A stretch of 64,000 nucleotides of DNA from Rhodopirellula sp. JB044 (lineage in GTDB: Bacteria > Planctomycetota > Planctomycetia > Pirellulales > Pirellulaceae): assembly GCF_043101355.1 (NCBI RefSeq), contig NZ_JBICHZ010000005.1; one strand, given 5' to 3'. Shown here piece by piece: positions 37,445-60,427 of this stretch. Under the pieces are notes generated by a model. The model was not told the origin of the DNA and searched no databases. It was given only the letters and a program-made list of their open reading frames with translations. Positions within the stretch are counted from its first letter, which is position 1. The number at the start of each line of letters is the position of its first letter. The position numbers and the translations under genes were made by a program.

Positions 37445-37576
37445 GCGAATGTGTTTGCCTAGCCAGAGATTTGGTCCTGACTGGCATATGGCGCACCGAT
37501 CCGAAATTACACCTGAAATAGCGGAAGGATCGCAACCTTTTTCGTAAACTCCGCTGCCCTCCCGCTGTCGTCTTGC

Positions 37577-38080
37577 CTAGCCCGCCGGGCTGGAGAGGAG
37601 CAACTGACAACATTCGGGTTCGCAGACGCCTGAGATCAGTTGCACCGCTTTATCGCTGCTGCTAACGAATTTTTCACACGACAAACCGAGAGTCGCATAG
37701 CCCGCGTCCGTGATTGTTTCGCAGGAAGCGCCATAAGCAATTACGCCTACCTTTGCCAACAATGCCGTCGCAGCACACATCGGGCACGGCTCACCACTAC
37801 TGACTAGAACGTATCCACTTAAATCCGGTGTATTGAGTTTTTTGCATGCCGCGTTAATCGCGTTGACTTCACCATGGCGACTGACTTCGCTGGTTTCCGA
37901 AACCGTATTGTGCGCGAGCGCAACCATGTCTCCCGATGGCGAGAAGACTCCGGCGGCAAACGGAGACTGCCCTTCCTTCAAACCGCTACGCAGCTCGTCG
38001 AGCACTACGAGCATCCAACGCTCTAACGTTGACAAATCGATATCCTGTGGGCTGGCTTCTCGCTGTGCTGTCGCTTTCAT
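37577..38080 (-). CDS. Zn-dependent nucleoside/nucleobase deaminase (cytidine deaminase/TadA/GuaD-like fold)
   Basis: PFAAGV...HN...HGEVNAI...SSGEPCPMCA motifs. Confidence 0.88.
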   Translation of the reverse strand: MKATAQREASPQDIDLSTLERWMLVVLDELRSGLKEGQSPFAAGVFSPSGDMVALAHNTVSETSEVSRHGEVNAINAACKKLNTPDLSGYVLVSSGEPCPMCAATALLAKVGVIAYGASCETITDAGYATLGLSCEKFVSSSDKAVQLISGVCEPECCQLLLSSPAG

Positions 38081-38188
38081 CGCTTTTCAGTCTCCCTTTC
38101 GTCGGTTCTCAGACATTCCGCTTCGGTACGGTTCTTGCTGAACAAACTCGGCAGCAAAGCCCGTGCCCAAGAAACCGGATGAGAGAGC

Positions 38189-39058
38189 ATGTCCACGATG
38201 AACGCAGATTCCCAACAACAGAGTACGATCGATACGCCCGATGGCAGAGGCCTTCATCTACGACGTTGGGGCGAAGGGGCCGGCGACATCGCGATCGTGG
38301 TGGTGCACGGACTCGGTGAACACAGCGGATGGTACGACGAATTCGGCGAAATGATGGCCTTCGAAGCCATCTCCAATGACAACATCATTACGTACGCCTA
38401 TGACCAGCACGGCCACGGCAAGAGCCCCGGTGTTCGCGGGCATGCCCCATCGCTGGATCGGCTCGTCGATGACGTCCAGGTCGTCTGCGATTATGTTGCC
38501 GAGGCTCAACCCGGCGCCGAAATCGTTTTACTCGGACACAGCATGGGTGGTCACATTACGCTCAAATACCTTCTGCGAAGCAACAGTCATCCGGTCCATC
38601 GCGCCATCGTCACCAACCCAATGATCTTGCCGAAAAATCCTCCTACCCGAGCGCAATCCTTTGCGGCATGGCTGACGGCAAAGATCATTCCGAGAGTCCG
38701 AGTCTCGGCAAACATCGAACCGACTCAGTTGACTCAAGACACCGAAATGCTCACACAACTCGCGCACGATCCTCTGATGCATGAAAAGCTGTCAATCGGA
38801 ATAGGAGGGGAATTGATGTCCAGCGGCCATGAGATTCTCGAAGAAGCCTCCAGCCTCACCACCGAGTTGCTGTTCCTCACCGGTAGCGATGACGATATTT
38901 GTGACACGGAAACGAGCCAAACGTTCTGCGAACGCGCAGGAGAAAGCTGTTGCACAAAAACCTTTAACGGACTCCGACACTCGCTCCTCATCGAAGCACG
39001 CCGCGACGAAGTCTTCGAAACCATCAAAACATGGTTGTCCCCGAACACAGACCGCTAA
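38189..39058 (+). CDS. Alpha/beta hydrolase, lysophospholipase/monoglyceride lipase family
   Basis: VHGLGEHSGWY; YDQHGHGKSPG.RG; GHSMGG nucleophile elbow; GSDDDI; H in GLRHSLL. Confidence 0.88.
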   Translation: MSTMNADSQQQSTIDTPDGRGLHLRRWGEGAGDIAIVVVHGLGEHSGWYDEFGEMMAFEAISNDNIITYAYDQHGHGKSPGVRGHAPSLDRLVDDVQVVCDYVAEAQPGAEIVLLGHSMGGHITLKYLLRSNSHPVHRAIVTNPMILPKNPPTRAQSFAAWLTAKIIPRVRVSANIEPTQLTQDTEMLTQLAHDPLMHEKLSIGIGGELMSSGHEILEEASSLTTELLFLTGSDDDICDTETSQTFCERAGESCCTKTFNGLRHSLLIEARRDEVFETIKTWLSPNTDR

Positions 39059-39281
39059 TGCCTTCCTGCAATGCGGAGGATTGAGCCGCCTGCTGCGAGT
39101 CACCTTGCCGCACCCTCGAACGTTGCCTAGCGGGATCGCGTTCGAAAGGGTGCGATTTCTTTGCGTTGTGCGAGATCAACTTCACTGGTCAGATAATTTT
39201 TGCGTTGAGGTTCCCCCCTTCCGCATTCGCTTCTCGGATTGGAAAACCGCATGTCGGAAATCCCAGAACAGATCGATTACC

Positions 39282-41610: not shown

Positions 41611-41638
41611 TGCGCATAGTTGATACTTGTTTGCGCAA
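41611..41638 (+). promoter_or_regulatory. Putative XylR/AraC-type operator (site D) upstream of galM-GH43
   Basis: TGCGCATAGTTGATACTTGTTTGCGCAA: TGCGCA half-sites 21 bp apart; -10-like TATCCT at 41669-41674. Confidence 0.55.
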
Positions 41639-41753
41639 AGGTTTAGTGACCAGGCCAAACCGCACGGCTATCCTTGGCGAGAGTGTCGCCTCAAACGCAC
41701 TCGCCTGCTTTCCGATTCAATGTCCCCACATCCAAATTTGGTCTCTCTATCTC

Positions 41754-42857
41754 ATGGCAATTTCCTTGATTCGAAGACTCTTTCTACTCGTCGTGACGGC
41801 AAGCATGACGTGCGGCATCGCTCCTGCCACCGAGGTTTCCGATTTTGACTCCATCAATCTCTACACGCTGACCAACCAAAACAACATGGTGGTGAAAATC
41901 ACCAACTATGGCGCGACCATAACCTCGATCATCGTCCCCGACCGCAACGGCGACATGGCGGACGTGGCTCTCGGTTACGACAACGTGGAAGGCTACATCA
42001 ACGCGGCGAATCGACCGTATTTCGGCAGTGTTGTCGGTCGCTACGGCAATCGCATTGCTCGAGGCAAGTTCACACTCGACGGCACGGAATACACTCTTGC
42101 AACCAACGATGGTGAAAACCACCTTCACGGAGGACAGATGGGTTTCGACAAAGTCGTCTGGGAGGCCGAACGAGTCGACAACGGTGTCAAAATGACTTAT
42201 CGAGCCCGTGATGGCGAAGAAGGCTACCCGGGAAATTTGACCTTGAGCGTCACGTATACGCTGACGAACGAAAACGCGATCGTCATGCACTACGAAGCCA
42301 CCACGGACAAACCAACGGTCGTCAACGTCACCAATCACACCTACTTCAACCTAGCCGGAGAAGGGGAACCGACGATCAACGATCACATCCTCCGAATCGA
42401 CGCGTCCAAATTCACACCTGTCGACGCGGGACTAATCCCTACCGGTGAACTGCGTGACGTAGCAGGAACACCTTTCGACTTTCGCGAACCCAAACTGATC
42501 GGGCGTGACCTTCAGTCAAACGATTCCCAACTGCAACACGGCCTCGGTTACGACCACAACTGGGTACTCGACCGGGAAAAGGCTGGACTCGAATTAGCCG
42601 CTACTTTGCATGAAGCGAAGAGCGGACGCGTGCTCGATGTGCTCACTACCGAACCCGCGATTCAGTTCTACGGCGGAAACTTTTTAGATGGAAACTTGAT
42701 CGGCAAATCGGGCAAGGCCTACCAGCATCGAAGTGGATTGTGCCTGGAAACACAACACAGCCCAGACAGCCCGAATCGCCCCGAATGGCCGAGCACTACC
42801 CTGCGTCCAGGCGAGAAGTACGAGACCACCACGGTCTATCGTTTTGGAGTGAAATAG
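41754..42857 (+). CDS. galM: Aldose 1-epimerase (mutarotase) with signal peptide
   Basis: YFGSVVGRYGNRIA.GKF; HLHGG..GFDK; GEEGYPGNL; VNVTNHTYFNL; GYDHNW; QFYGGNFL; GLCLETQH.PDSPN. The ATG at 41754 gives a signal peptide (MAISLIRRLFLLVVTASMTCGIAPA). Confidence 0.93.
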   Translation: MAISLIRRLFLLVVTASMTCGIAPATEVSDFDSINLYTLTNQNNMVVKITNYGATITSIIVPDRNGDMADVALGYDNVEGYINAANRPYFGSVVGRYGNRIARGKFTLDGTEYTLATNDGENHLHGGQMGFDKVVWEAERVDNGVKMTYRARDGEEGYPGNLTLSVTYTLTNENAIVMHYEATTDKPTVVNVTNHTYFNLAGEGEPTINDHILRIDASKFTPVDAGLIPTGELRDVAGTPFDFREPKLIGRDLQSNDSQLQHGLGYDHNWVLDREKAGLELAATLHEAKSGRVLDVLTTEPAIQFYGGNFLDGNLIGKSGKAYQHRSGLCLETQHSPDSPNRPEWPSTTLRPGEKYETTTVYRFGVK

Positions 42858-42981
42858 CGACAACGCAACGCGTGTGACGCATCCTCTTGCTATGCCGCCT
42901 GACATGATACACCGCGAATAACCTTGGATGCCACGCTCGCGATGTGTACCGCGTGGCCTCGACCTCTCCTGACGAAACGAA

Positions 42982-43980
42982 ATGCGCACCATACTCTGCT
43001 TTCTTTTACTCACTGCAACTGCAGTAGCTGTCGAACCAAGACTTCCGTGGCAAAATCCGATTCTTTGGCAACGCGCCGACCCGCACGTTACCTTGCATAG
43101 CGACGGATGGTACTACTTCACCGCAACGGTCCCGCAATACGATCGCATCGAACTGCGGAAAGCAAAAACGCTCGGCGAATTATCCAACGCCCAGGCAAAA
43201 GTCGTCTGGCGAAAACACGACCGCGGTCCGATGAGCCATCACATCTGGGCTCCCGAGATCCATTTCATCGATGGCAAATGGTACATCTACTTCGCAGCCG
43301 GACGAGCTGAGGCGATCTGGGATATTCGCCAATACGTACTCGAGTGTGATGCGTCCGACCCACTCAAAGGTCAATGGGTTGAAAAAGGCCAGATCAAAAT
43401 GAACCGGGAATCATTCACCTTGGACGCCACAACCTTCCGGCATCTCGGCAAGAGATACCTCGCGTGGGCGCAAAGCGTTCCGGAAGAACGTGGCACACGC
43501 ATTTTTCTCGCTGAAATGGATACGCCTTGGTCCATCACCGGACAACAGGTCGCAATCACGAAACCGGATCTGCCTTGGGAACGCATCGGACACAATGTCA
43601 ACGAGGCCCCCGCGTTCATTCACAGAAACGGAAAACTCTTCATGACGTATTCGGCCAGCGCAACAGATTCGAATTATTGCCTTGGCTTGCTCACCGCTGA
43701 TGAGAATGCCAACCTGCTCGACCCACAATCTTGGAGCAAATCACCGACTCCCGTGCTGAAGAGCCATCCCGAAACCAGCCAATTTGGCCCAGGGCACAAC
43801 TGCTTCACCACGTCACCCGACGGAAGCACAGATATTTTGGTTTATCACTCCCGCGACTACGAAACAATCAAAGGCGATCCTCTAAACAACCCAGACCGTG
43901 CGACGCGCGCGCAGGTGCTGCTGTGGAACGATGACGGTACACCCAACTTCGGCGTGCCCGTTGCGAACGACCGAAAATAA
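42982..43980 (+). CDS. GH43 alpha-L-arabinofuranosidase (GH43_26-like)
   Basis: Signal peptide; QRADPHV; HIWAPEIH.IDGKWYIYFAAG; FTLDATTF; VNEAP; YSASATD.NYC.GLL; GPGHNCF. Confidence 0.88.
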   Translation: MRTILCFLLLTATAVAVEPRLPWQNPILWQRADPHVTLHSDGWYYFTATVPQYDRIELRKAKTLGELSNAQAKVVWRKHDRGPMSHHIWAPEIHFIDGKWYIYFAAGRAEAIWDIRQYVLECDASDPLKGQWVEKGQIKMNRESFTLDATTFRHLGKRYLAWAQSVPEERGTRIFLAEMDTPWSITGQQVAITKPDLPWERIGHNVNEAPAFIHRNGKLFMTYSASATDSNYCLGLLTADENANLLDPQSWSKSPTPVLKSHPETSQFGPGHNCFTTSPDGSTDILVYHSRDYETIKGDPLNNPDRATRAQVLLWNDDGTPNFGVPVANDRK

Positions 43981-43987
43981 AACGCCC

Positions 43988-44018
43988 GCTCAACCGAATC
44001 GCTGCTCAACCGAATCGC
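43988..44018. repeat. 15-bp direct repeat GCTCAACCGAATCGC x2
   Basis: Exact copies at 43988 and 44004, just after the GH43 stop. Confidence 0.6.
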
Positions 44019-44211
44019 CGGCCACGCCTGCGGCACCGACGGCGTATCGAAAACCATCTATCTAGGATCACGCCGAGAAAACTGGGAGCGATGCTCCTCA
44101 CCGCAAAGTGCCGCCAACGAACCGGACATCCCCTCGCGGTTATTGGGTCTCAACTTGTTTGAATCTCACCGCGATTCGAGGCCACTTGGATCAAGACCTC
44201 TTCGTTGAAAC

Positions 44212-47200
44212 TCATTGGGTCGCCACGACGCTTTCATCGGCAGACAGATCATGAGCCTCTTGGTCGGCCTCAACACACAGCCATGTCACGTTGGGCTTCA
44301 ATCCCGGATAACGTTGCTGCGTTCCACAGGCCCACCTCACTACAACGTCGCACTCACCGGCGGACTCGCCTAGCCCGACCCGCAGAATCCGCTGGTTGCT
44401 GCAAAGGTAACCATCGCCCGACGTCAGCGGAACCACCCACCGCCGATCGTTGGATTCAATTTCGACAACAGCACCAATGGCATCCCGCGAGCAATCTCGC
44501 CCCACCAACTGCACCCCGATCCAATCACCAGACTCTTCGGTTTGATTGACCAACAATGCAACCGGTTCGGTTTGGTGAGTGACGACTAAATCCGTCCGCC
44601 CGTCACGGTTGGCAACGACAGTCCACAGGGCCCGCCCGACGTGCTTGGCACTGATGTACTCTCCGTCAATCAACTCAGCAACCGATTCATAATCATCGAC
44701 GGTATGTCTCCGAAAGACTTGTATCGGCTGCGCATACGAACCGGACTTTTCACCTGGGTAATGATCCACGTGACCGTTAGTGACAACGAGTTCGAGCCAA
44801 CCATCATTATCGAGATCCACGGCCTGCGTCCCGAACCCTACCATCGGCAATGTGTCTGAGTACAGTCGCTGCGGCATCGTCTGGTCTCTCCAGACCCCCG
44901 GACTCAGTTGGTCATGATAGGTATTGCACTCCTGATGGAAATTCGTGACGTAGAGATCAAAGTCTCCGTCACGATCGAAATCTCCTGTCGCCAACCCCAT
45001 CGACCCTTGATACGGCGAATCGTTGCTCGCCCCCAATCCTCGTACGATCGCGGATTCGCTCAAGGCAAATTCCTTACTCCCGGCTCGACTCCAATAGTGG
45101 TTGCTTGACTGATCGTTGGCGACAAAAAGATCCACGCCGGGTACTTGGTCAAGGTCACCCGCAATCACACCGAGTCCTCGGCCGAGGTTCGACGCGGTGG
45201 GCTGCAAAGACGTCTGGTGAGCAAACTCTCCCGTTTGAGAGTTTAGGTAGAATCGATCCGCTGCCGCTTTGAAATTCAACGGGGCACACGCACGTGCAAG
45301 ACGTTTGCTCGCCCCAAAACACTTCTTGGTTACCGGTTTGAGACCACTGCCGTAGTTTAAAATTGTCAGATCCGCCAATCCGTCTTGATTCCAATCAGCA
45401 ATCGCACCGCTCGATGACCAAACGACTTCCTGGCCATCGCTCGGCAACCGTTCGCTCGCGTCAGTGAATGTTCCATCGCCGTTATTGATGCATAGAACAT
45501 TCGGACCGTAGTTCAATACCAACAAATCAGGAAAACCATCTTCGTTGACATCCCCGACCGCGACTCCTTGCCCAAAACCGGTGTCATCGGTCCCGGATTC
45601 ACGACTCACGTCGGCAAAGGTGCCTCCTCGATTGATCCAAAGTGCATTCGGACTCGAATCTCGATTTGGTGGGGTGCCGCCCGCCGCCGCGAAGTACAAA
45701 TCCGGCCAGCCATCGAGGTTATAGTCGATGGTCCCGCCACCACAGCCCAACGTTTGGTAATGCATCACGCCTGGACGATCCAGGTCATCCGCCGTACGCC
45801 CAAAGAACGTTAGTGATCGCTCATTCGCCTCGTTCTTCAATTGCAGACGTTCGGAACGCCGGCGGATGCGGATTTGCTCCTGGTCTCGTTGACCAGCGAT
45901 TTTTCCAGGCGAGTCCAATCGCGGCGAAACGAGATGGCTAAGATCCATCCGCAACTCGAGGTGTTTTTCATCGATCTGCCAGGGGGTGTCTTTTCGCAAT
46001 GAACGAACGATCGACTCACGAATTTGAGCAACCGGCACAGACGGATCGCCCGGTAGCCGAGTTGCAATCGCGGCCCAGGCTTCGGCCTCCCATAGACGCC
46101 CCAGGTTTTTCAAGGTTTCGGCAATTTCAACCGCGATAGCCCGCGAAGGATAGGTGCGAAACCGTGTCGTCGCATCGTTAAAAAGGGTCAGCAACTTTAC
46201 TCGCTCCTCAACGGAGTGAAGAGTCAAATCATCAATCCCATGACTACCGTGGTCGAGTTGCTTCAGCGAAGTCGCTAGTTTGAGCCAATATTCGCGACCA
46301 TCCGCGTCCCGCCGCGCCGCCTCCCAATACGCTCGCGTCGCTTCCGTTTGCCGACCTGCATACCAGCACCAATCACCCACCGCTAACCAATAGTCAGGAT
46401 AGTCATCAATGCCGTCAGGCAGTTCGACCGCGAATGTCGCAAACTCGTCGTACGCAGCCGTTGCGATCAACACACGACATCGCAGTGCGTTGGCAGGCAA
46501 GTGTTCGGGGTGAGTCTCGAGGACTTGACGGAGAGTCGCTTCTGCCTGCGTGAACTCGCCCTGATCGAAACGGTACTTTGCTTCGGCAAGGAGAGGTCGT
46601 TTGTCTCGCGGATGACGCTTGGCCATCGCCACAAAAGACTCCAATCGATCCGTTCCCGATTCGGTGGAACTGAGCGTCAATAGCAACGGCAAATCAAACT
46701 GGCGATACTTCACCAAAAGACGACCATGAGGAATTGCTCTCCGTCGGTCTTCCGCGCCCCAACACATGTCGTAAAAGTATTGCCGAATCTCATGCAACTC
46801 GGGATCGACTTCCAACACATCTTCAAAAAGGTCCAGACAATCGAATAGCCGCCCGACCTTCAACAGCGCTTCCATCGCTCTCTTGATCCCGGCCACATCT
46901 TGAAAATCCTCTGCGCGGCATGCATCCACCACGAGTTCTGCAGCAACGTCAGGCTTTCCAACTTTCTGAGCGACACTTGCGACCAGGTACATCACCTCCG
47001 CGTCATCTGGATGTTGCGTCAAGGCAGCGTTAGAACATTCCCACGCCTCCTGCCAACGTTGCCGCTCCACGGCTACACGCAAATGCTGTAAAGGATTGAC
47101 CGGCGAGTCCACCGGAACCGGATCCAACTTCTGCTCTGCCGGCATACTCTCGTCGGTTCGGCTGCAACCGATCTGCACGTACAACACCAACGTGGCACCG

Positions 47201-47238
47201 ACGATGAGCCAAACAATCTGATTACGATGAACAAGCAA
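44212..47238 (-). CDS. TPR + FG-GAP/CRTAC1-like + ASPIC/UnbV lipoprotein (copy 3)
   Basis: Lipobox-like VQIGC; TPR half; TLGCGGGTIDYNLDGWPDLY; GFGQGVAVGDVNEDGFPDL; SRDAIGAVV...GDGYLCSNQRILRVGLG. Closest to copy 2. Confidence 0.88.
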   Translation of the reverse strand: MLVHRNQIVWLIVGATLVLYVQIGCSRTDESMPAEQKLDPVPVDSPVNPLQHLRVAVERQRWQEAWECSNAALTQHPDDAEVMYLVASVAQKVGKPDVAAELVVDACRAEDFQDVAGIKRAMEALLKVGRLFDCLDLFEDVLEVDPELHEIRQYFYDMCWGAEDRRRAIPHGRLLVKYRQFDLPLLLTLSSTESGTDRLESFVAMAKRHPRDKRPLLAEAKYRFDQGEFTQAEATLRQVLETHPEHLPANALRCRVLIATAAYDEFATFAVELPDGIDDYPDYWLAVGDWCWYAGRQTEATRAYWEAARRDADGREYWLKLATSLKQLDHGSHGIDDLTLHSVEERVKLLTLFNDATTRFRTYPSRAIAVEIAETLKNLGRLWEAEAWAAIATRLPGDPSVPVAQIRESIVRSLRKDTPWQIDEKHLELRMDLSHLVSPRLDSPGKIAGQRDQEQIRIRRRSERLQLKNEANERSLTFFGRTADDLDRPGVMHYQTLGCGGGTIDYNLDGWPDLYFAAAGGTPPNRDSSPNALWINRGGTFADVSRESGTDDTGFGQGVAVGDVNEDGFPDLLVLNYGPNVLCINNGDGTFTDASERLPSDGQEVVWSSSGAIADWNQDGLADLTILNYGSGLKPVTKKCFGASKRLARACAPLNFKAAADRFYLNSQTGEFAHQTSLQPTASNLGRGLGVIAGDLDQVPGVDLFVANDQSSNHYWSRAGSKEFALSESAIVRGLGASNDSPYQGSMGLATGDFDRDGDFDLYVTNFHQECNTYHDQLSPGVWRDQTMPQRLYSDTLPMVGFGTQAVDLDNDGWLELVVTNGHVDHYPGEKSGSYAQPIQVFRRHTVDDYESVAELIDGEYISAKHVGRALWTVVANRDGRTDLVVTHQTEPVALLVNQTEESGDWIGVQLVGRDCSRDAIGAVVEIESNDRRWVVPLTSGDGYLCSNQRILRVGLGESAGECDVVVRWACGTQQRYPGLKPNVTWLCVEADQEAHDLSADESVVATQ

Positions 47239-47516
47239 TGCACTTACCTTTTCGCGATGCTCAAGACCTCCTGCGCCAAGAAACCGATTCGAACATGAAT
47301 TAGCCGATCGGTGGTAGCCGCGGTTTCCAGGATATACCCGAAACCAGCGATTGAGGGGCGATCAATTTACCGAGGTGATCGGATAATGCCGAATTGTCGC
47401 CATGGTGGAAAACCGCAAAGCACTTCGCCGCCCCACCTTCAAACCGCCCCCCCCTTCAAACCACGCGACCACCGCCCGACCGAACCCTTAACGCGGTTCG
47501 CTCACGCGTCACACTG

Positions 47517-47544
47517 TACGCAAAAACGACATTTTTGTGCGCAA
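47517..47544 (+). promoter_or_regulatory. Putative XylR/AraC-type operator (site A) upstream of DUF1559 copy 2
   Basis: TACGCAAAAACGACATTTTTGTGCGCAA, 25/28 identical to the araD site; perfect TATAAT at 47574-47579. Confidence 0.7.
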
Positions 47545-47776
47545 TGCCGGATAGAATCCCCGGGAACCAAACCTATAATTGGCTCTAATGTTCAAGAGTG
47601 TCACCTAAAGGGCTTCCTCCTGGACAGCCCAACCCGATACCGGGAAAGGCGTTATTCCCCCGTCAAAACTGTTTTGATTGGTGCCGCGGATTTGTTTCCA
47701 GAACACCTTTCGGTCTTTGCCGATTAGAAACAGTCCGATTTTGTCCATCGTTATACATTGAACTGGAGATGCAGAC

Positions 47777-49018
47777 ATGAGTCCTCAAAGAGTTTGCCCA
47801 CGCAAGGCAAGAGAAGCATTCACACTGGTGGAATTGCTTGTTGTGATCGCAATCATTGGCGTGTTGGTCGGGTTGCTACTGCCCGCCGTACAAGCAGCCC
47901 GTGAAGCTGCACGTCGGATGAGTTGCAGCAACAATTTCAAACAAATTGGATTGGGCATCCACAACTACCACGCGGCGTTCAATCAAATCCCGACGCATAT
48001 GAGCGGAACCGCATCCAGCGGTGGCGGCACGAACCAACTTAACAACCAGCAGATCCTTAGCTACCTCGTCGGAATCTTACCATTCGTCGAGCAGCAAGCA
48101 TTGTGGGAACAGATTTCTAACCCGAACGCTAGTAATGCCGATGGTTCGGCAAAGTCGCCACCGTGGCCTGCGATGGGCCCCGCCCCTTACATTGGAACGT
48201 ACGGTCCTTGGGCGACGGAGATCCCCACCTTTCGCTGCCCAAGCGATCCAGGGAAGGGACTGCCATCGCTCGGCCGGAGCAATTACGCCGCATGTGTTGG
48301 TGATGACGCGATGACCAATTTTGGCCCCTACCACCCTTGGTTCGGGGGCGAACGATGGGGTGACATCCTCGTCAACGATGCACGGGCACACTACCGTGGC
48401 TTTTTCAAGCCGATGCTGAAATCAAGATTCCGTGATGTACTCGATGGCCTCGCCAACACGATCGCCGCAGGTGAAATGAACACCGACCTCGGTGACCGAG
48501 ACATCACCACCGCCGCGTTGAACAACCCAGGAGCATGGTGGAGCCTGACGGACAATCGCAACCACTGTGCCTCTTTGATTAGTGCCGAACGACCGCAATT
48601 CTGGGACGCCTCGGTCCCTCAAGCCTCACCGGGCAGCGACCCGGGCGATGGTGGACTCGTAAACTCAGACTTTGGACGTGGCTATATGTGGGCAGTCGGC
48701 GAACCACTGCAAACTTCCTTTACCACGATCAAGGCTCCGAACTCGGAATTGTGCATCATCGACGGTAACCCTGGATCTGAAATCATGGCCAGTGCAAGCA
48801 GTCGTCACCAAGGCGGGGCACACGTGCTGATGGGTGACGGTGCAGTCAAATTCATTACCGACTCGATCGATACCGGTTCCCACAACGGCATGGTTTTCTG
48901 GGACCACGCTACCAACCGCCCAGGCGCACCGACGGTTCCTGGTTCACCAAGCCCATTCGGACTTTGGGGAGCTCTCGGCACTCGTGCCAGCAAAGAAGTT
49001 ATCGATCAAGAATTTTAA
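47777..49018 (+). CDS. DUF1559 prepilin-like protein (copy 2)
   Basis: [53 protein letters not shown]; [22 protein letters not shown]; [16 protein letters not shown]; GGAG RBS upstream. Confidence 0.95.
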
Positions 49019-49072
49019 TTGGGCCGAGCTCTACGCTTCGCTGATCCTACCTTATACGTGAAAGAGAATTTG

Positions 49073-49267
49073 ATGAGAAGGAAGTCTTGGCTGCTGTTGG
49101 CCCTGTGCGCTCTCAGCCTGCCGACCGCCGGCTGCGGACAAGAAGAAAACACGGTGATCCAAACGGATACCGCGAGAGAGGAGCGTTTTAGTAACTACGG
49201 GGAAACTTCCAAGGACGCCTCCTCAGACCGCTCTCGAGGATCCAGGAGCATTCCCGATCAACAGTAA
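49073..49267 (+). CDS. Small lipoprotein (64 aa), DUF1559-associated type
   Basis: MRRKSWLLLALCALSLPTAGC lipobox; 54 bp downstream of DUF1559; followed by a terminator. Confidence 0.75.
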   Translation: MRRKSWLLLALCALSLPTAGCGQEENTVIQTDTAREERFSNYGETSKDASSDRSRGSRSIPDQQ

Positions 49268-49291
49268 TTCGGCGATGCATTGAACAACGAC

Positions 49292-49321
49292 AGACACGCT
49301 CGCAAGAGCGTGTCTTTTTTA
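49292..49321 (+). terminator. Rho-independent terminator
   Basis: AGACACGCTC-GCAA-GAGCGTGTCT: 10-bp perfect stem, GNRA loop, then a T-tract. Confidence 0.85.
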
Positions 49322-49432
49322 TGCCCCGTCGCATTCAACGATGATGCGACCAGTCAAAATCACTGACCGCGAAAGGAATCAAACCGCCCAAGCCCGGCAA
49401 CACGTCACCGGCAAACATCTTCCAGGGGCGCC

Positions 49433-50611
49433 TTAGCTCGTCTCGTTCCTGATTTGACGGCGAAACCTCGATGGCGTCACACCGTGAGCCGCCCGGAACA
49501 CTTGTATGAAATAGGACGGCGTTCCGAATCCGATCGCGTCGGCGATTTGCGGAATCGGCAAATCAGTTTCCAACAAAAACCGCTTGGCTCGGTCCATGCG
49601 CACACGCTGCAGCTCTTCATGCAACGTCCGCCCAACGACCTTTCGAAAACGCGTTTCGATATTTCTCCGGGAAATGGCAACATATCGGACCACGTCATCG
49701 ATCTGAATCGGCTTGGTTGCGTTTTCATGAATGAAACGTATGGCCGCGGCAACGTCAGAATCTTCGATGGCAAAGATGTCTGTCGATCGGCGTGTGACAA
49801 CGTGCAGCGGCTTGGCCAACAACCGCTGCGGCTTGCGCACCTTCCGTTTCATCATCTGATCCAACAACGCTGCCGCACGGAACCCAGTGCCCTCGGCATC
49901 GAGCGCGACACTCGTGAGTGGCGGATCAGCGAGCTCACAAAGAAGATCGTCATCATCAACCCCAATCACCGCAAACTCCTCGGGCACTCGTATTCCCGCG
50001 TTGTAACACGCCTCGAGAACCTCTCGGCCCCGGTCGTCGTTGCACGCCATTACGCCCGCTGGCTTCGGAAGATTCGAAAGCCACTCGGCCAATTGGTGCT
50101 GTTCACGGTCCCACTCTCGCTCACGTTTGCTCCGCGGGCCCCGGTAAACCTCAACCGAATACCCCGCCTCCTCAATGTGCTTGCAAAAACTCTGTTCGCG
50201 GAGATCGGACCAAACACGCCCACGCACACCCACGAACGCGAATTTTTGGAATCGACGTTCGAGCAAATGCTGTGCAGCCAGTTGAGCAGCACTATAAGAA
50301 TCAGACGATATCTCGCTGAGTTGCGACAAAGGATGATCGGGTTCGCGTTCTTCTTGCTTTAAGTCCAACGCGATCGTGGGCAACCCCGATGCGAGAACGT
50401 CTTTGGCGATTTGAGATGTCTCGAGTCGCGCGATGATCCCGGCTCCACCCCAACGTTTCATGCGAGGCAAGGCTTGCTTGAAATCACCAGGCACGAGGTA
50501 GAAATCCCACGGCCCGTGTAGTCGTGAATAACGGGCGATTCCACGCAACAGTTGCCGCCCATAACCTCGCGACGTCTCAATCAGTAACGCCACTTTTGCC
50601 GAGTCGCTCAC
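49433..50611 (-). CDS. XylR-type regulator (periplasmic-binding-protein fold + AraC HTH)
   Basis: KVALLIETSRGYGRQLLRGIARY; GIIARLET; GVMACNDDRG; VIGVDDD; IHENATKPIQIDDV...SRRNIETRF...IADAIGFGTPSYF. Likely GTG start at 50611 (track 50668). Confidence 0.9.
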   Translation of the reverse strand: MSDSAKVALLIETSRGYGRQLLRGIARYSRLHGPWDFYLVPGDFKQALPRMKRWGGAGIIARLETSQIAKDVLASGLPTIALDLKQEEREPDHPLSQLSEISSDSYSAAQLAAQHLLERRFQKFAFVGVRGRVWSDLREQSFCKHIEEAGYSVEVYRGPRSKREREWDREQHQLAEWLSNLPKPAGVMACNDDRGREVLEACYNAGIRVPEEFAVIGVDDDDLLCELADPPLTSVALDAEGTGFRAAALLDQMMKRKVRKPQRLLAKPLHVVTRRSTDIFAIEDSDVAAAIRFIHENATKPIQIDDVVRYVAISRRNIETRFRKVVGRTLHEELQRVRMDRAKRFLLETDLPIPQIADAIGFGTPSYFIQVFRAAHGVTPSRFRRQIRNETS

Positions 50612-50625
50612 GTGCCACCTTTGTT

Positions 50626-50653
50626 TACGCAAAAGTGACATTATTGTGCGCAA
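50626..50653 (+). promoter_or_regulatory. Putative XylR/AraC-type operator (site B) between the regulator and araD
   Basis: TACGCAAAAGTGACATTATTGTGCGCAA; half-sites 21 bp apart; -10-like TAACAT at 50685-50690. Confidence 0.7.
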
Positions 50654-50773
50654 GGTTTGGATAGTCAACGTGCCCAGACAGAGCTAACATCGTCTCATGA
50701 CGTGCGAGCGTCGCAACCACTGCCTTCATGACGAAATTGAGGGCTCTTAAATCCCCTCAGCAATGACACAGAG

Positions 50774-51502
50774 ATGCTCGACCGGTTGAAGAAGGAGGTA
50801 TGCGAAGCGAACCGTGACTTGGTTCGTCATCACCTCGTCACACTGACTTGGGGTAACGTCAGCGGGTATGACTCCGATAGTGAACTCGTTGTTATTAAAC
50901 CGAGTGGAGTCTCGTATGAAGAGCTAACACCACAAAAAATGGTCGTTGTAGACCTGGATGGAAATTCCGTCGAAGGCGACTTAAGACCGTCGAGCGACAC
51001 CGCAACTCACGTTTTGCTGTATCGTTCGTTTGTCGGCATCGGTGGGATCACTCATACGCACAGTCGCTACGGCACGGTGTACGCGCAGGCAAGGCGTGAA
51101 ATTCCGTGCCTGGGAACAACGCACGCGGATCACTTTTATGGTCCGGTACCTGTCACCCGTCCGTTGACCAAAGAAGAGGTCGAGACCGGGTACGAAGCGA
51201 ATACCGGGGCAGTGATTGTAGAACGATTCGCAAACCTGGATCCGCAATCGATGCCAGCAGTGTTGGTAGCCGGACACGCACCGTTCGTGTGGGGACCGTC
51301 GGCGAAAAAGTCGGTCGAAAACGCCGTCGCTTTAGAGGCGGTTGCAGAAATGGCATTGGCCACGCAGCAAAGCATGCAGCAGGGCACGCACAGCGCCCAA
51401 GAGTTAGAATCCTATGTGCTTGAAAAGCACTATCGTCGCAAGCACGGTTCGGCCGCCTATTACGGCCAACCCTCTAACTCCTCTGCAAGCACTCAATACT
51501 GA
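50774..51502 (+). CDS. araD: L-ribulose-5-phosphate 4-epimerase
   Basis: LVTLTWGNVS; VIKPSGV; PSSDTATH; THTHS; GTTHADHFYGPVP; VLVAGHAPF.WG; KHY.RKHG..AYYGQ. Confidence 0.95.
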   Translation: MLDRLKKEVCEANRDLVRHHLVTLTWGNVSGYDSDSELVVIKPSGVSYEELTPQKMVVVDLDGNSVEGDLRPSSDTATHVLLYRSFVGIGGITHTHSRYGTVYAQARREIPCLGTTHADHFYGPVPVTRPLTKEEVETGYEANTGAVIVERFANLDPQSMPAVLVAGHAPFVWGPSAKKSVENAVALEAVAEMALATQQSMQQGTHSAQELESYVLEKHYRRKHGSAAYYGQPSNSSASTQY

Positions 51503-51515
51503 TTAGGTCCCCAAC

Positions 51516-53207
51516 ATGCAAATCTTTGACTGGGTTGTTGTCGCTATTTATTTCATGGGATTGGTTGCCATTGTGCACTGGTCCTCGAAACAAATTTCAT
51601 CGACATCGGATTACTTCCTCGCTGGGCGACACGCCAGTTGGTTTGTGATCGGGGCATCGCTCTTTGCCTCGAACATCGGTTCCGAACACATCGTAGGATT
51701 GGCGGGCAACGGGGCGTCCTCCGGGATGGCAATGGCCCACTGGGAATTACACGCCTGGGTGATGCTGTTGCTCGCGTGGGTGTTTGTCCCGTTCTACTAT
51801 CGCAGCGGTGTCTTTACGATGCCGGAGTTTCTCGAACGTCGATTCGATTCCAGAACGCGTTGGGTACTGTCAATCGTCAGCCTGCTAGCATACGTTTTCA
51901 CCAAAGTATCAGTGACGGTGTACGCCGGGGCACTCGTCTTCATGAGCCTGCTCCCCGATACGTTTGGCACCCCCGAAAATGCGTTCTGGGTCGGTGCCTT
52001 CGTTACCGTAGTTTTGACGGGAGTCTACACCGTTTTCGGTGGACTGCGTGCGGTGCTTTATACCGAGGTGGCACAAACGGTGGTGCTGCTTCTCGGGTCA
52101 TTCTTCATAACTTGGTTCGGACTGCGGGAACTCGGCGGATGGGGAGAACTGCAGGCGACCGCATCGGCATCAAAAGCTGAATTCGCATTGTGGCGTCCAC
52201 TCGTTCAGGAAGGCGTTCCCTGGTGGAAGAACGGTGACTTCCCTTGGCTCGGAATCTTGATCGCCTCGCCCGTGATCGGCATCTGGTACTGGTGCACCGA
52301 CCAATACATTGTCCAACGAACACTCGCTTCGAAAGACCTGACCGAAGCACGACGCGGTGCGATCTTTGGCGGTTTCCTCAAGGTCTGGCCGGTAATGATC
52401 TTCTTGATCCCCGGCATGATCGGTTGGGCTCTTCATCAAAAAGGCAGCATCTCTATCCCAACGCGGAGCAGTGGCGAGATTGATGGCGACCAAGTCTTTG
52501 CCACGATGGTGACCGGACTGCTTCCGATCGGCCTGCGCGGTCTCGTGGTCGCGGGATTGATGTCGGCCCTCATGAGTTCACTCGCATCACTATTTAATTC
52601 GTGCGCGACACTGTTCACGATCGACATCTATGAAAAGCTGCGACCGGGTAAAACCGAAAAGCACTACGTCTACATCGGTCGCTTGGCAACGGTTGCCGTC
52701 GTGATCGCGGGCCTGATCTGGATTCCGATCATGAAAGCAATGGCAGGCGGCGGCATCTACAAATACCTGCAAGGTGTCCAAAGCTATCTCGCGCCTCCGA
52801 TCACCGCCGTCTTCCTACTCGGACTCTTTTGGCGACGGGTCAATGCGACCGGAGCATTCTGGGGTTTGATTATCGGGTTCGTACTCGGAATGGGTAAACT
52901 GACCGTGGAAGCGGTCACGACCTCCTTGGAGGTACAAAGCGGAATTTGGAAAGACATCGCGGACTTCAACTTCCTTTATTACTCCGGCGTTTTACTACTG
53001 ATCAGTGTCGCCATCGTGGTTGCCTTGTCGTTGCTAACGGAATCGCCGGGAGAGGAAAAGACGAACGGCATTACCTGGGGCGGGCTGTCGACGGAAGACC
53101 GCCTGGCAATTCGAAACAGTTGGACCGCCACCGATGTCGTCGCCTCCCTGGCTGTCCTCGGTATGGTCATCGGCGTTTACCTCTATTTCAGTTTTTGGTT
53201 GAGTTGA
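51516..53207 (+). CDS. Sodium:solute symporter (SGLT-like sugar transporter)
   Basis: DYFLAGR; ASLFASNIGSEH.VGLAG; TMPEFLERRF; WYWCTDQYIVQRTL; SSLASLFNS..TLFT.DIY; many TM helices. Confidence 0.93.
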   Translation: MQIFDWVVVAIYFMGLVAIVHWSSKQISSTSDYFLAGRHASWFVIGASLFASNIGSEHIVGLAGNGASSGMAMAHWELHAWVMLLLAWVFVPFYYRSGVFTMPEFLERRFDSRTRWVLSIVSLLAYVFTKVSVTVYAGALVFMSLLPDTFGTPENAFWVGAFVTVVLTGVYTVFGGLRAVLYTEVAQTVVLLLGSFFITWFGLRELGGWGELQATASASKAEFALWRPLVQEGVPWWKNGDFPWLGILIASPVIGIWYWCTDQYIVQRTLASKDLTEARRGAIFGGFLKVWPVMIFLIPGMIGWALHQKGSISIPTRSSGEIDGDQVFATMVTGLLPIGLRGLVVAGLMSALMSSLASLFNSCATLFTIDIYEKLRPGKTEKHYVYIGRLATVAVVIAGLIWIPIMKAMAGGGIYKYLQGVQSYLAPPITAVFLLGLFWRRVNATGAFWGLIIGFVLGMGKLTVEAVTTSLEVQSGIWKDIADFNFLYYSGVLLLISVAIVVALSLLTESPGEEKTNGITWGGLSTEDRLAIRNSWTATDVVASLAVLGMVIGVYLYFSFWLS

Positions 53208-53297
53208 CGCCCTCGCCACAGCGGGCGCCATTACCGGCACACGCGGATCACACCGCGTTGGATGGCCGAACAGAGCATCTACAAGGAGCACAGAAAA

Positions 53298-55031
53298 ATG
53301 TCATACACGCTTGGAATTGACTATGGATCCAACTCCGTTCGTGCGATCGTAGTGGATGTTGCCGACGGATTCGAACTGGGCAGTTGTGTCTTTAATTACC
53401 CCAGCGGACAGCAAGGCATCTTGCTCGATCCACAGGATCATCACCTCGCTCGCCAACACCCCGGCGACTATCTTCTCGGTCTGGAACAATCCGTGCGAGG
53501 CGCCATCGAAAACGCGTCCAACGTTGCCGGTTTCTCCGCCGACAAGATTGTCGGCATCGGCGTCGATACCACGGGATCCAGCCCCATCCCGGTCGATGAA
53601 AACAATATCCCGTTGGCGTTGAATGAATCGTGGTCGGAGAACCTGGCGGCGCAGTGTTGGCTTTGGAAAGATCACACCAGCCACGAGGAAGCGGCAACGA
53701 TCACCGAACTCGCCAAGGAACATCGGCCGGATTACATCGCCAAATGCGGAAATACCTATTCGTCGGAATGGTTCTGGAGCAAAATTTGGCACTGCCTGAA
53801 TTCATCACCCGACGTATTCGACGCCGCGTTCAGTTGGGTCGAACTGTGTGACTTCATCCCTTCGGTGCTCGCTGGAGTGAACGATCCGCGGGAAATCAAA
53901 CGCGGGATCTGTGCCGCCGGGCATAAGGCGTTGTACAGCGACCAATGGGGTGGCCTGCCGGACAAAAATTTTCTATCAATGCTCGATCCGGCACTGTCCG
54001 AACTCCGTGATCGCCTCTACGAAACGGCGTACGATGCCACCGAAGCCGCCGGCACCCTGTGCGACCAATGGGCGAATCGACTGGGGCTGACTGCCGGAAT
54101 CCCGATCGCCATCGGTGAATTCGATGTGCACTACGGTGCAATCGGTTGCGGTATCGACGAGGGAACGCTCGTCAAAGTCATCGGCACCTCGACGTGTGAC
54201 TGTGTGGTCGTCCACGAAAGCAAATCGATCGCCGATATACCGGGCATCTGCGGAATCGTGCCAGGCGCCATTTTGCCAGACTACTACGGTATCGAAGCTG
54301 GACAAAGTGCAGTCGGTGATATCTTCAAGTGGTGGGTCGAAGGCGTGTGCGGGGGTGATGCCACACTGCACGCGAGACTCTCTCTCGAAGCCGAATCTCT
54401 CGCGCCCGGCCAAAGTGGTCTGCTCGCTCTCGATTGGAACAACGGCAACCGCACAACGCTGGTCGATCCGATGCTCAGCGGTTTAATGCTCGGGCAAACG
54501 CTGCACACCACTCGTGCAGAAATCTACCGTGCGTTGATCGAAGCGACTGCCTTTGGAGCCCGAACCATTATCGAACGCATTGCAGAATATGGTGTCACGA
54601 TTGATCGAGTGGTATGCGCCGGTGGTATCGCGGAGAAGAACCCCTTACTCATGCAGATCTACGCCGACATTACCGGTTGCACAATGCTCGTTGCCGGATC
54701 GAGCCAAGCATGTGCACTCGGCGCCGCCATATCGACTGCTGTCCTCGCCGGAGAACATCCTGACTTCCGCACCGCGCAGGACTCGATGACTTCCCTTAAA
54801 GACGTCTGCTACAGTCCCATTGCCGCAAATCAAAAGATTTATGACCAACTCTTCACGCTCTACCGTCTCATCCACGATTCCTTTGGCGGCGTCCGCCGTT
54901 CGGTAGATCTCTCCGGCGTGATGAAGGAACTCATTCAAATCAGAACGTTGTCGCAGAAAACCGATCATCCCTCTGACGCCGACACTCAACCAACCGAATC
55001 CCGTCCCCACGTCGAACTCGTCCGCTCATGA
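53298..55031 (+). CDS. araB: L-ribulokinase
   Basis: [14 protein letters not shown]; [11 protein letters not shown]; WLWKDHT; YSSEWFWSK; AGHKA; LDWNNGNRT; [15 protein letters not shown]. Likely start at 53298. Confidence 0.95.
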
Positions 55032-56542
55032 GCAACATGCCAAAACCCGAAATCTGGTTTATCACCGGTTCACAACACCTTTACGGCGAAGGGCCTCTCA
55101 AGCAGGTCGCGGAAAACTCCCTGCAGATCGTTAACGAATTAAATGCATCGGGACGTTTGCCATTGAACCTGGTCTTCAAACCGATCGTCACCCGACCTGA
55201 GGAAATTCGCGCGCGTTGCCTGGAAGCCAACAGTTCCGAAAACTGCGCAGGCGTCATTCTTTGGTGCCACACCTTTTCGCCTTCGAAGATGTGGATCGGT
55301 GGCTTGCTTCAGCTCGCCAAGCCGGTGTTACATCTGGCCACGCAGTTCAATCGCGACCTGCCTTGGGCAGACATCGATATGGACTTTATGAACTTGAACC
55401 AAGCCGCTCACGGTGATCGCGAACACGGGTTCATTCACACGCGTCTGCGGCTCGGACGGAAAGTCGTCGTCGGCCATTGGAGTGATCCGGAAGTCCAAGA
55501 CCGCGTCGCCGTATGGATGAGGGTCGCCCACGCCTGGGCTGATTGGCAGGGAGGCAAGTTCTTACGCATCGGCGACAACATGCGTTACGTTGCTGTGACC
55601 GAAGGCGACAAGGTAGCGGCCGAAGCACGCTTCGGTTTCTCCGTCAACACGCACGGCGTCGGCGATCTGGCTGAGGCCATGAACGGGATCGACGAAAGTG
55701 CGGTCACTGATTTATGTGCGCAGTACGAATCGGAATATGATGTCGCCGACGGGCTCCGGAAGGGAGGCCGACGCCACGACGCACTCCGTTACAACGCTCG
55801 GCAAGAACTCGGACTGCGCGCGTTTCTCGAAGATGGCGATTTTATGGGCTTCACCGACACGTTTGAAGACCTGCACGGCCTGACGCAGCTACCAGGCTTG
55901 GCAGTCCAACGATTAATGGCCGACGGCTATGGATACGCAGGTGAAGGCGACTGGAAAACCGCTGCACTCGTCCGTGCAATGAAAATCATGTCGTCCGACA
56001 TGCCTGGCGGGACGTCATTCATGGAAGACTATACCTATGAACTGAACCCCCAAGGTCAACTCGTTTTGGGATCTCATATGCTCGAGATCTGCCCGTCGAT
56101 TGCCTCGCATAAACCGGCGATCGATATTCACCCGCTGGGGATTGGTGGCAAGGACGATCCCGTACGAATGATTTTTGATGCACACGAAGGTGCCGCAGTC
56201 AACGTCGCGATGATGGATCTCGGAAATCGGTTCCGGTTGCTGGTCAACGAGGTCGATGCGATCAAACCACCTCATGATCTGCCCAAACTTCCGGTGGCCC
56301 GCGCGGTTTGGAAGTGCAGGCCTGATCTGAAAACGGCTGTGGGATCATGGATTTATGCCGGTGGTGCCCACCACACCGGATTCAGCTACAGCGTGACGAC
56401 AGAGTACATCGAAGACCTTGCAGAAATCGCAGGAGTTGAAGTCGCGATCATCGATGCGGAAACCAAACTAAGAGACTTCAAACAAACGCTCCGAAACAAT
56501 GAAATCTACTATCACATCGCCCCCGGACTCAGCAGGATGTAG
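55028..56542 (+). CDS. araA: L-arabinose isomerase
   Basis: [12 protein letters not shown]; [10 protein letters not shown]; [10 protein letters not shown]; [10 protein letters not shown]; SFMEDYTY; GSHMLE.CPSIA; GGAHHT. ATGA overlap with araB. Confidence 0.97.
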
Positions 56543-56578
56543 ACGCAGGAACGAAGTCCTCCGACACGAAACTGCAAT

Positions 56579-57409
56579 TCACTGATAGACGCGAACGTAT
56601 TCAATTTCATATCGTGTTGGAAAGGTGGTGCCCGCCGGATCGCCACCGTTGGCACCACCGATCGCAAGGTTGAGCAAGAGATAGTGAGGTTGCCGAAAGG
56701 GATTCTTCGGTCCCCGGTCAGTAGGATTCAATGTCTTGCGAACATCGATCGTATTGAGCAGCCGATCATCAACAAACAACTTAATGCTGTCGGCATCCCA
56801 ATCCATTCTCCAAACATGGAACCTTTCATCCCATTTCGGATCGCCAAAGGAGTCTACCGGCTTCTTGACGCTATCCCACTTTGCATTCCAACGTTGTCGC
56901 GTCCCCCAGCACGCGTTCGCCAAAATGTTCCCGTCGTAGTACTCCATCAGATCGATTTCACCGTTACTCGGCCATTCTCCTTCCACACCTAGAAACCAAA
57001 TCGCGGGCCAAAGCCCTGGCTGTGCAGTGATTTTCGCTTTTACTTCAAACCGGCCGTACTTCCAACTCTGTAGGCCCCGGGTCGTCAACGAAGCAGACGT
57101 GTATTCGGCGAACTTCCTCTGTGTCTTCCAGTTTCTACTGCCCGCTTCATAGTTGGGATTTTCCCTACGTTCTCGGCGACCTTCGATAACCAACCGACCG
57201 CCTTGGCAGTAGGCATTCTGTCGCTGGTACCACTGCAGTTCACGATTGCGAGCGAAGCCACGTTCGTAAGTCCAGTTCATTGGATCGGGTGCACCATCAA
57301 TCTCAAACTCATCCGCCCAAACGAGTTGCAAGTCATCGGCAGGCGTGTTGGTACACAAGTGCGAAGCTGACAAATGAAACACCATCAGCACAGCAATATG
57401 AATTCGCAT
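56579..57409 (-). CDS. Secreted GH16 glycoside hydrolase
   Basis: LVWADEF; YTSASL; YGRFEVKAK; WPAIW; catalytic EIDLME; LLLNLAIGG; EIEYVRVYQ. Likely start MRIHIAV at 57409. Confidence 0.9.
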   Translation of the reverse strand: MRIHIAVLMVFHLSASHLCTNTPADDLQLVWADEFEIDGAPDPMNWTYERGFARNRELQWYQRQNAYCQGGRLVIEGRRERRENPNYEAGSRNWKTQRKFAEYTSASLTTRGLQSWKYGRFEVKAKITAQPGLWPAIWFLGVEGEWPSNGEIDLMEYYDGNILANACWGTRQRWNAKWDSVKKPVDSFGDPKWDERFHVWRMDWDADSIKLFVDDRLLNTIDVRKTLNPTDRGPKNPFRQPHYLLLNLAIGGANGGDPAGTTFPTRYEIEYVRVYQ

Positions 57410-57620
57410 TGAACGCTCTCTCGTTTTCGTTTGACAGCGATGCAAAGTGGACCTTCCACCTCGCGATTCCTGTCGTTTTTTCTTTTATCAGGTCAAGAAG
57501 ATTAAAGACGTCGGGCACTGCGGCATCGATCGCCTGCGCGGACATAACCGCTCTCGGTTGTAGAACATTGATTCAAACATACCCACAGAGCAATGCCTCC
57601 AAGACCCAACACGGGGCACC

Positions 57621-57648
57621 GGCGTGATATCGACATTTTTCTGCGTGA
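57621..57648 (+). promoter_or_regulatory. Putative XylR/AraC-type operator (site C) upstream of GH51-GH27-GH146
   Basis: GGCGTGATATCGACATTTTTCTGCGTGA: GCGTGA repeated at 21-bp spacing; core CGACATTTTT identical to site A. Confidence 0.5.
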
Positions 57649-57769
57649 AACTGCATTGAACGATCAAGCATATTGAGAGAGCATCAATCCGTCGTGTTTG
57701 ATGCAAGCGGTTTGTCCCTCGCAGATCACGATGCCCCCTATCCCCACTCGCCTTGCTAAAGGGCACCCA

Positions 57770-60256: not shown

Positions 60257-60427
60257 GGATGCTACCCCGCTTTCATGCGTTTTGATCGCTCAACTCACGT
60301 GCGATGGGCAGACGTACATTTCTATAGAAAAGGCCCTTGTCATGGAATCGACGGACGACGACGTGCATCTTACATGTTGTTGTGAATTCGATGGACGAGG
60401 TTGTTCACCGTACGCTGGCAAACCAAT

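Follow-up and report, generated by a model that had tools for sequence, protein, structure and literature searches.

A predicted XylR-family arabinose regulon that appears to take in a DUF1559 pilin-like gene in Rhodopirellula sp. JB044

Introduction

Can a pilin-like protein of the DUF1559 family be assigned to the regulon of a single sugar? The question is raised by a 64,000-nt stretch of Rhodopirellula sp. JB044 (contig NZ_JBICHZ010000005.1; hereafter the window), in which an earlier note, made from the sequence alone, had pointed to four plus-strand copies of a 28-bp element, called D, A, B and C in the order of their positions. Copy A stands in front of a DUF1559 gene and the others in front of arabinose and arabinan genes, and the note had proposed that a XylR-type protein encoded between A and B activates all four promoters. 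We find it probable, from the evidence set out below, that the element is the operator of this regulator and that the regulator controls four units in a sugar-dependent, activating manner, the DUF1559 gene and a small lipoprotein gene behind site A among them.

Planctomycetes rank among the major degraders of polysaccharides. No paralogous family in their genomes is larger than DUF1559 (68-74 copies), and defined operators for planctomycete transcription factors are almost absent from the searchable literature. The family is restricted to planctomycetes, highly expanded (74 copies in R. baltica, 68 in P. limnophila) and of unknown function (PMC2754498, PMC10632474).

Results

A conserved element of about 39 bp precedes four sets of genes

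All four copies stand exactly where the earlier note had placed them, starting at 41611 (D), 47517 (A), 50626 (B) and 57621 (C), and A and B differ, as it had counted, at 3 of 28 positions. The gap between 28-mer and start codon, given there as about 116-122 bp for D, B and C, measures 115 nt for D (galM, ATG 41754), 120 nt for B (araD, 50774) and 121 nt for C (GH51, ATG 57770; GH, glycoside hydrolase), and for A it is 232 nt (DUF1559, ATG 47777). The element is longer than had been thought: an alignment of 21 sites from many genomes shows conservation running about 11 nt further 3', with the consensus TGCGCAATTnTaACATTTTTTTGCGCAA followed by the extension ggTTTGGATAG, about 39 bp in total. 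When the window was scanned with a position weight matrix (PWM) built from 15 sites of other organisms only, which makes the test non-circular, the four copies ranked at the top (A, 36.0 bits; B, 31.2; C, 27.9; D, 26.7). The fifth-ranked match reached 3.8 bits, and the maximum over 40 shuffled windows was 16 bits.

The element holds two TGCGCAA boxes 21 bp apart, each with a second box about 4-5 nt on, GACAT after the distal and GGATAG after the proximal one. A TAnnnT hexamer begins 28-32 nt past the 28-mer in 18 of the 21 sites, where about 1.2 would be expected. The hexamers that had been noticed downstream of A, B and D are indeed present, 29-31 nt past the 28-mer (A, TATAAT; B, TAACAT at 50685-50690; D, TATCCT, 30 nt past), and the 3' extension overlaps a weak -35 (ATAGAA at A, TAGTCA at B). 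Given this fixed -10 offset, the full site would cover about -70 to -32 of a promoter with a recognizable -10 and a poor -35. The site owes its polarity to the 3' extension, to the fixed -10 and to an asymmetric center in which GACAT is followed by a T-run, and all three face the catabolic operon in every locus. Site B also contains a σ70-like promoter on the minus strand (-35 TTGACT, 50668-50663; -10 AATAAT, 50645-50640). Because the site overlaps this divergent promoter of the regulator gene, whose GTG start at 50611 is only 14 nt off, autoregulation through site B is likely.

The regulator is a full-length relative of E. coli XylR

The regulator combines a XylR-like N terminus of the periplasmic-binding-protein (PBP) type with a C-terminal double helix-turn-helix (HTH) (PF22177, PF13377, PF12833/PF00165), and its residues 6-385 align over the full length with residues 7-385 of E. 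coli XylR (4FE4; E = 3.7e-67). The NCBIfam AraC model matches only the C-terminal HTH (residues 275-389; 62.8 bits against a cutoff of 208), and the N terminus is PBP-like rather than the cupin sensor of E. coli AraC. Four of the six residues that contact xylose in E. coli XylR are identical (Tyr18, Trp135, Arg139 and Asp219), while the O4 and O3 contacts are changed, Asp65 to Glu and Gln237 to Leu or Phe (Leu in the window). These changes are compatible with a pentose other than xylose, short of proof. The hallmarks of XylR proper, control of xylose genes and binding of D-xylose, are not seen, all identified targets being ara, arabinofuranosidase or Leloir-type genes. Gene callers begin the protein at ATG 50641 (402-aa form), the complement of the CAT at 50639-50641 (minus strand) in the GACAT box; we favor GTG 50611 because the orthologues are 390-396 aa long. 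Hundreds of such orthologues, 55-78% identical, occur in Pirellulaceae.

The element accompanies the regulator in other organisms

Support for the proposed pairing of the element with this protein (49433-50611) comes from 15 loci of other organisms in which the motif adjoins a regulator orthologue of 55-78% identity (L001-L005, L018, L032, L034, L036, L037, L039, L041, L054, L056 and L097). Nearly all of these sites precede araBDA, GH51, GH43, GH127 or Leloir-type genes; by downstream genes, the tally is araBDA at seven sites, GH51 at five and a galT-kinase-PGM-epimerase set at three, besides GH43 and GH127. The earlier note had suggested looking for the motif at orthologous Pirellulaceae loci, and in five of the six loci retrieved via regulator orthologues it lies in the divergent intergenic region, facing catabolic genes. 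In Crateriforma conspicua it leads into araB-araD-araA-symporters-GH27, in strain CA13 into GH51 and GH43, and in L004 into GH51. At L006 (Novipirellula artificiosorum; regulator orthologue, 65%) no site was found within 10 kb on each side, and the gene next after the regulator codes for a DUF1559 protein.

A strict pattern scan over one genome for each of 185,579 species returned 58 matches, 10 of them directly beside a regulator orthologue (nine labelled Planctomycetota, plus L041); the other 48 have neither regulator nor arabinose-gene context. A scan of metagenomes added L097, where a regulator 65% identical to that of the window and a divergent site are followed by GH51 and GH127, as well as L082 (site, then GH127) and the contigs L111 and L122 described below. 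Extra sites with a matching 3' extension at L094, L117 and L121 were set aside as chance matches because these loci are organellar-looking (L094, L117) or belong to a two-component system (L121).

At L001 (2713-9594), L005 and L041 (3093-7157) the operator stands ahead of galT-GHMP kinase-PGM-(symporter)-epimerase, a Leloir-like or sugar-salvage set that continues into GH127/51 in L001 and L005. Thus, with such sets in three organisms, the regulon is not strictly araBAD. L041 is labelled Alphaproteobacteria, yet it carries the same regulator and galT in a planctomycete-type context, and its genes look frameshifted. At L034 (5224-6419, minus strand) the regulator orthologue is split into two open reading frames, owing to either a frameshift or faulty assembly, and an intact operator faces a DUF7133 protein.

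Site A and the DUF1559-lipoprotein unit

Site A is the best-scoring of the four copies, faces the second DUF1559 gene of the window (copy 2) and has its TATAAT at the canonical offset of 29. Most likely it drives copy 2 together with the small lipoprotein gene that follows. The predicted transcript has a 5' leader of about 190 nt, then the two genes, and would end at a hairpin that is likely a bidirectional terminator. Rfam has no match in the whole window, so that no known RNA element accounts for the leader. In Rhodopirellula sallentina SM41 (L015), which shares 90-100% protein identity with the window and where the strict pattern finds site A only, the 39-bp site is identical at 39 of 39 positions and the -10 at 6 of 6. 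Identity is 80% over the whole intergenic region and drops to 48% in the 100 bp that immediately precede the site.

DUF1559 copy 1 (20956-22203, minus strand) lacks an arabinose-type site in its upstream region. That region holds, about 212 nt from the gene, a look-alike element at 22417-22444 (minus strand), TCCGCAGAAAGTCGAGGATTTTTGCGGA. This is a TCCGCA-N16-TGCGGA inverted repeat whose interior is A-rich and then T-rich, as in the operator, and another regulator might act on copy 1 through it.

Copy 2 itself is a member of the H-X9-DG family, with PF07963, PF07596 (E = 3e-68) and TIGR04294 (41.8 bits against a cutoff of 19). Its AlphaFold2 model (mean pLDDT 78) begins with a long helix, and in a fold search against the PDB only this N-terminal helix matches pilins (1AY2, 6XXD and PulG, all with E > 0.1); the head domain has no PDB match in that search and its fold does not indicate a function. 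Residue -1 of the cleavage site is Ala (47816-47818) instead of the Gly of type IV pilins and type II secretion system pseudopilins. All four operator- or regulator-linked DUF1559 proteins (window, L018, L036, L111/L122) have Ala at this position, a post-hoc observation; among 41 relatives sampled, 30 have Gly and 11 Ala.

The lipoproteins associated with DUF1559 genes are about 55-65 aa long and carry a lipobox, and the closest ones have the motif ...NTVI...NYGE.S.D...DRSRGSR. They occur in the window (that of copy 2 and a further one at 22624-22812, plus strand) and at L065 11272-11463, L066 11359-11553, L067 11354-11521 and L036 ~1913. DUF1559 gene and lipoprotein gene look like a conserved two-gene module.

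The same operator precedes DUF1559 genes in other lineages

In L018, a Pirellulales metagenome-assembled genome, a regulator (55%) and a site are followed by genes for a PEP-CTERM-like protein, a DUF1559 protein, a lipoprotein and an MFS_2 sugar transporter. L111 and L122, two low-GC contigs, have a GH51 gene, then the site and then a DUF1559 gene; their 39-nt sites are identical and their flanks differ. The L018 and L111/L122 cases are two unrelated genes in distant lineages: other DUF1559 paralogues have gained the same operator independently. L036 is arranged like the window: its DUF1559 gene converges with the regulator gene, and the site and araD-symporter-araB-araA come next. The 690 bp available upstream of that DUF1559 gene contain no site. 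In all, three of about 22 operator-controlled units hold a DUF1559 gene, where the family makes up about 1% of genes, an enrichment that is suggestive, not decisive.

For copy 2 itself, the site A wiring appears to be lineage-specific, because its orthologues in other genera are not under the operator. The promoter of the Neorhodopirellula lusitana orthologue (L065) is homologous to promoter A: both have the proximal box TGCGCAA-N4-GCATAG and the -10 CCTATAATT, and the distal box of N. lusitana reads TGGTGAA. Since this promoter keeps the proximal box and the -10 and differs at the distal box, copy 2 seems to have been wired to arabinose by a switch of the distal half-site in its own lineage. 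We had considered site A as a simple duplication of B, which the data support only in part: the homology of its proximal half-site and -10 to the N. lusitana promoter suggests in-place conversion of the distal half-site or partial gene conversion.

A and B also resemble each other just 5' of the 28-mers, in TCGCTCACGCGTCAC (47498-47512) and TCGCTCACGTGCCAC (50604-50618). This common stretch, TCGCTCACGYGYCAC, is identical at 13 of 15 positions and overlaps the regulator start codon at B; its A-side copy is decaying in SM41 and might be what is left of a partial copy of promoter B. The promoters of the copy-2 orthologues (L065, ~9830-9900; L066, Rhodopirellula sp. SWK7, ~9880-9950) hold a sequence that resembles the operator without being the same, TGGTGAAAACACACATGACTTATGCGCAATAACGCATAG in N. 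lusitana. Beside these orthologues stand XylR paralogues that are 56% identical to each other, which suggests paralogous XylR regulators with families of related operators.

Proposed mechanism and alternatives

We propose that a dimer of the sugar-bound regulator, with L-arabinose the most likely sugar, would sit on the ~39-bp site and recruit RNA polymerase, as E. coli XylR and AraC do. The regulon would have four units: galM-GH43, araD-symporter-araB-araA, GH51-GH27-GH127 and, behind site A, DUF1559-lipoprotein. The sequence data themselves show how specific the motif is, that it goes with the regulator, how the promoters are laid out and that site A is conserved; it is inferred that the regulator activates and does not repress, that the DUF1559 gene is co-induced and, from the content of the regulon only, that L-arabinose is the effector.

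Several observations weigh against this proposal. The Leloir-type targets at L001, L005 and L041 make D-galactose possible as effector or co-effector. Given how closely SM41 is related, the conservation of site A carries only moderate weight: 39/39 would arise by chance with a probability of about 2e-4 at 80% identity and about 0.01 at 89%, the identity of the leader. With site A 232 nt from the start codon, where B, C and D lie at about 115-121 nt, a long untranslated leader must be assumed. The site is absent at the copy-2 orthologues of N. lusitana (73%), SWK7 (68%) and CA13 (60%), and in the first two the orthologue adjoins a different XylR paralogue, ~40% identical to the arabinose regulator. 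A search of sequencing runs returned low-depth metagenome contigs only, and no transcriptome, transcription-start or induction data.

It is conceivable, though unlikely, that site A is competent for binding and has no effect on the DUF1559 gene, either as a relic of duplication or conversion of promoter B or because it acts only on the divergent FG-GAP/ASPIC gene. The extra similarity of A and B, with its overlap of the regulator start codon at B and its decay at A in SM41, has the look of a copied segment, and the distance from site A to its start codon is double that of the other sites. However, operator A and its -10 are fully conserved where the supposedly co-copied flank is not, and the TATAAT lies at the canonical offset. 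Moreover, the site faces DUF1559 and is 279 nt from the FG-GAP/ASPIC start, and the same operator stands ahead of DUF1559 genes in two other lineages. We regard as quite improbable the alternative that site A is used by another XylR paralogue, an orthologue of the regulator beside the N. lusitana and SWK7 DUF1559 genes, in which case the inducer would not be arabinose. The homologous promoter of L065, lying beside the paralogous regulator, and the wide spread of this regulator group in Pirellulaceae speak for it. On the other hand, a homologue search for the group listed many genera and no entry named R. sallentina, site A fits the arabinose-type consensus better than site B does, its distal box is of the arabinose type (TACGCAA) and not of the GTGAA type, and the 64-kb window holds no second XylR-type gene.

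The earlier note had read the two half-sites as a direct repeat. Their 21-bp spacing stands, but TGCGCA is self-complementary, so the half-sites by themselves cannot separate a direct from an inverted repeat and the inverted reading is formally admissible, which also counts against our proposal. The element could on that basis be a palindromic operator (TGCGCA-N15-TGCGCA) through which the regulator or another factor represses and arabinose de-represses, and the partly symmetric flanks (AAA...TTT) would suit this, as would the position of site B over the predicted promoter of the regulator gene, where binding would repress. We consider such repression very unlikely: the site is placed as expected for an activator and not for a repressor, 5' of the -10 and against a poor -35 (18 of 21 promoters); the GACAT center and the 3' extension are asymmetric and always face the catabolic genes; and characterized sugar regulators of the XylR and AraC families act as activators when bound there.

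Discussion

E. coli XylR binds DNA only in its sugar-bound state; its operators, of ~37 bp and with two direct repeats each, adjoin the -35 of promoters whose -35 and -10 elements are poor (PMC3561964). The regulator described here resembles it (4FE4/4FE7) in domain architecture and in its length of 392 aa, and the ~37-39-bp operator geometry, two repeats beside a weak -35, is alike. The targets differ, xylAB and xylFGH there and L-arabinose and arabinan genes here, as do the half-sites (gaAa-a-a-AAT against TGCGCAA). For XylR, looping between two sites has been shown. At pBAD, E. coli AraC binds the direct-repeat half-sites I1-I2, which are spaced by 21 bp and of which the proximal one overlaps the -35. 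Here, too, the regulator gene is divergent and probably autoregulated and araBAD genes are targets; in contrast to AraC, with its cupin-type sensor, the regulator has a PBP/LacI-like one, and no distal O2-type site was identified. Bacillus AraR (GntR/LacI type) and Bacteroides BtAraR (NrtR family; PMC4666351) likewise control araBAD and arabinofuranosidase genes, but both belong to unrelated families and are repressors with palindromic operators.

Within the phylum, the only native sugar-responsive regulator/promoter pair so far exploited is the rhamnose-responsive PvmA (DeoR family) of Planctopirus limnophila, where LacI, TetR, XylS and NagR systems had failed and the native circuit was adapted instead; PvmA differs from the window regulator in its family, in probably being a repressor and in lacking a defined operator (PMC11958385). 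The regulator-operator pair described here, being conserved in many Pirellulaceae, offers itself as a candidate tool for arabinose-inducible expression.

Collectively, the data support that regulator and operator belong to the XylR/AraC kind and that the new lead lies in the recurrent DUF1559-lipoprotein modules behind an arabinose/arabinan operator. Copy 2 has the motifs of its family (PF07596, TIGR04294) and is set apart by its predicted tie to a defined sugar regulon. With DUF1559 genes behind this operator in three lineages, a defined inducing condition would be available, and with it the first testable single-sugar link for the family and a small set of candidate genes for one substrate. 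A review has hypothesized that dedicated pilin-like proteins build fibers that draw polysaccharides into the periplasm (PMC12078418). We tentatively suggest, as a possibility short of an expectation, that DUF1559 proteins and their lipoprotein partners are substrate-dedicated parts of glycan capture or uptake, with paralogues wired to single-sugar regulons through XylR paralogues and related operators. If true, this would explain the expansion of both the DUF1559 and the XylR-type families, and the hypothesized polysaccharide "fishing-rod" fibers would gain molecular identities.

Other genes of the window

The features of the window are listed in Table 1. The annotations given in the earlier note hold throughout, with the exception of the last gene, called GH146 there, which matches Pfam domains of the GH127-type beta-L-arabinofuranosidases.

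Table 1. Positions of operator copies, genes and predicted signals in the 64,000-nt window
Feature	Position	Strand	Remarks
TPR/FG-GAP/ASPIC-UnbV paralogue	17831-20836	-	
TPR/FG-GAP/ASPIC-UnbV paralogue	22967-26107	-	
RG-lyase (RGL11)	38829-41501		
Operator D	41611-41649	+	28-mer 41611-41638 + 3' extension; 5' of galM-GH43
galM (aldose 1-epimerase)	41754-42857	+	PF01263
GH43	42982-43980	+	PF04616
TPR/FG-GAP/ASPIC-UnbV paralogue	44212-47238	-	divergent from DUF1559; recurring DUF1559 neighbor; control by site A hypothetical
Operator A	47517-47555	+	28-mer 47517-47544 + TGCCGGATAGA; 39/39 in R. sallentina SM41
-10 hexamer TATAAT	47574-47579	+	predicted DUF1559 promoter; start predicted near 47586
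DUF1559 copy 2	47777-49018	+	prepilin-type N terminus (Ala -1), PF07596, H-X9-DG
Small lipoprotein	49073-49267	+	MRRKSWLLLALCALSLPTAGC..., 64 aa; conserved partner after DUF1559 genes in other genomes
Hairpin	49292-49315		10-bp stem, T-runs on both strands; between DUF1559-lipoprotein unit and convergent regulator
XylR-family regulator	49433-50611	-	PBP-like sugar-binding domain + AraC-type double HTH; 392 aa from GTG 50611
Operator B	50626-50664	+	28-mer 50626-50653 + GGTTTGGATAG; between regulator and araD
araD	50774-51502	+	
Sodium:solute symporter	51516-53207	+	
araB (ribulokinase)	53262-55031	+	equivalog
araA	55028-56542	+	
GH16		-	between araA and GH51 in gene order
Operator C	57621-57659	+	28-mer 57621-57648 + 3' extension; weaker variant, GCGTGA half-sites
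GH51 alpha-L-arabinofuranosidase	57698-60256	+	open reading frame from 57698; likely ATG 57770
GH27	60401-62233	+	with NPCBM
GH127-type beta-L-arabinofuranosidase	62276-64000	+	to window end

The two DUF1559 copies of the window are flanked by the three TPR/FG-GAP/ASPIC-UnbV paralogues, each about 1000 aa long. In SWK7 the copy-2 orthologue is followed by an orthologous ASPIC gene (54%; L066 11804-14917), a recurring association of the two kinds of gene. Upstream of the arabinan genes, the region 26233-41501 encodes a GH88 enzyme, a 1442-aa NHL-repeat protein, a CBM9 protein, a GDSL esterase, an S33 hydrolase and the RGL11 lyase, and the whole window reads as a putative island for the utilization of pectin and rhamnogalacturonan-I.

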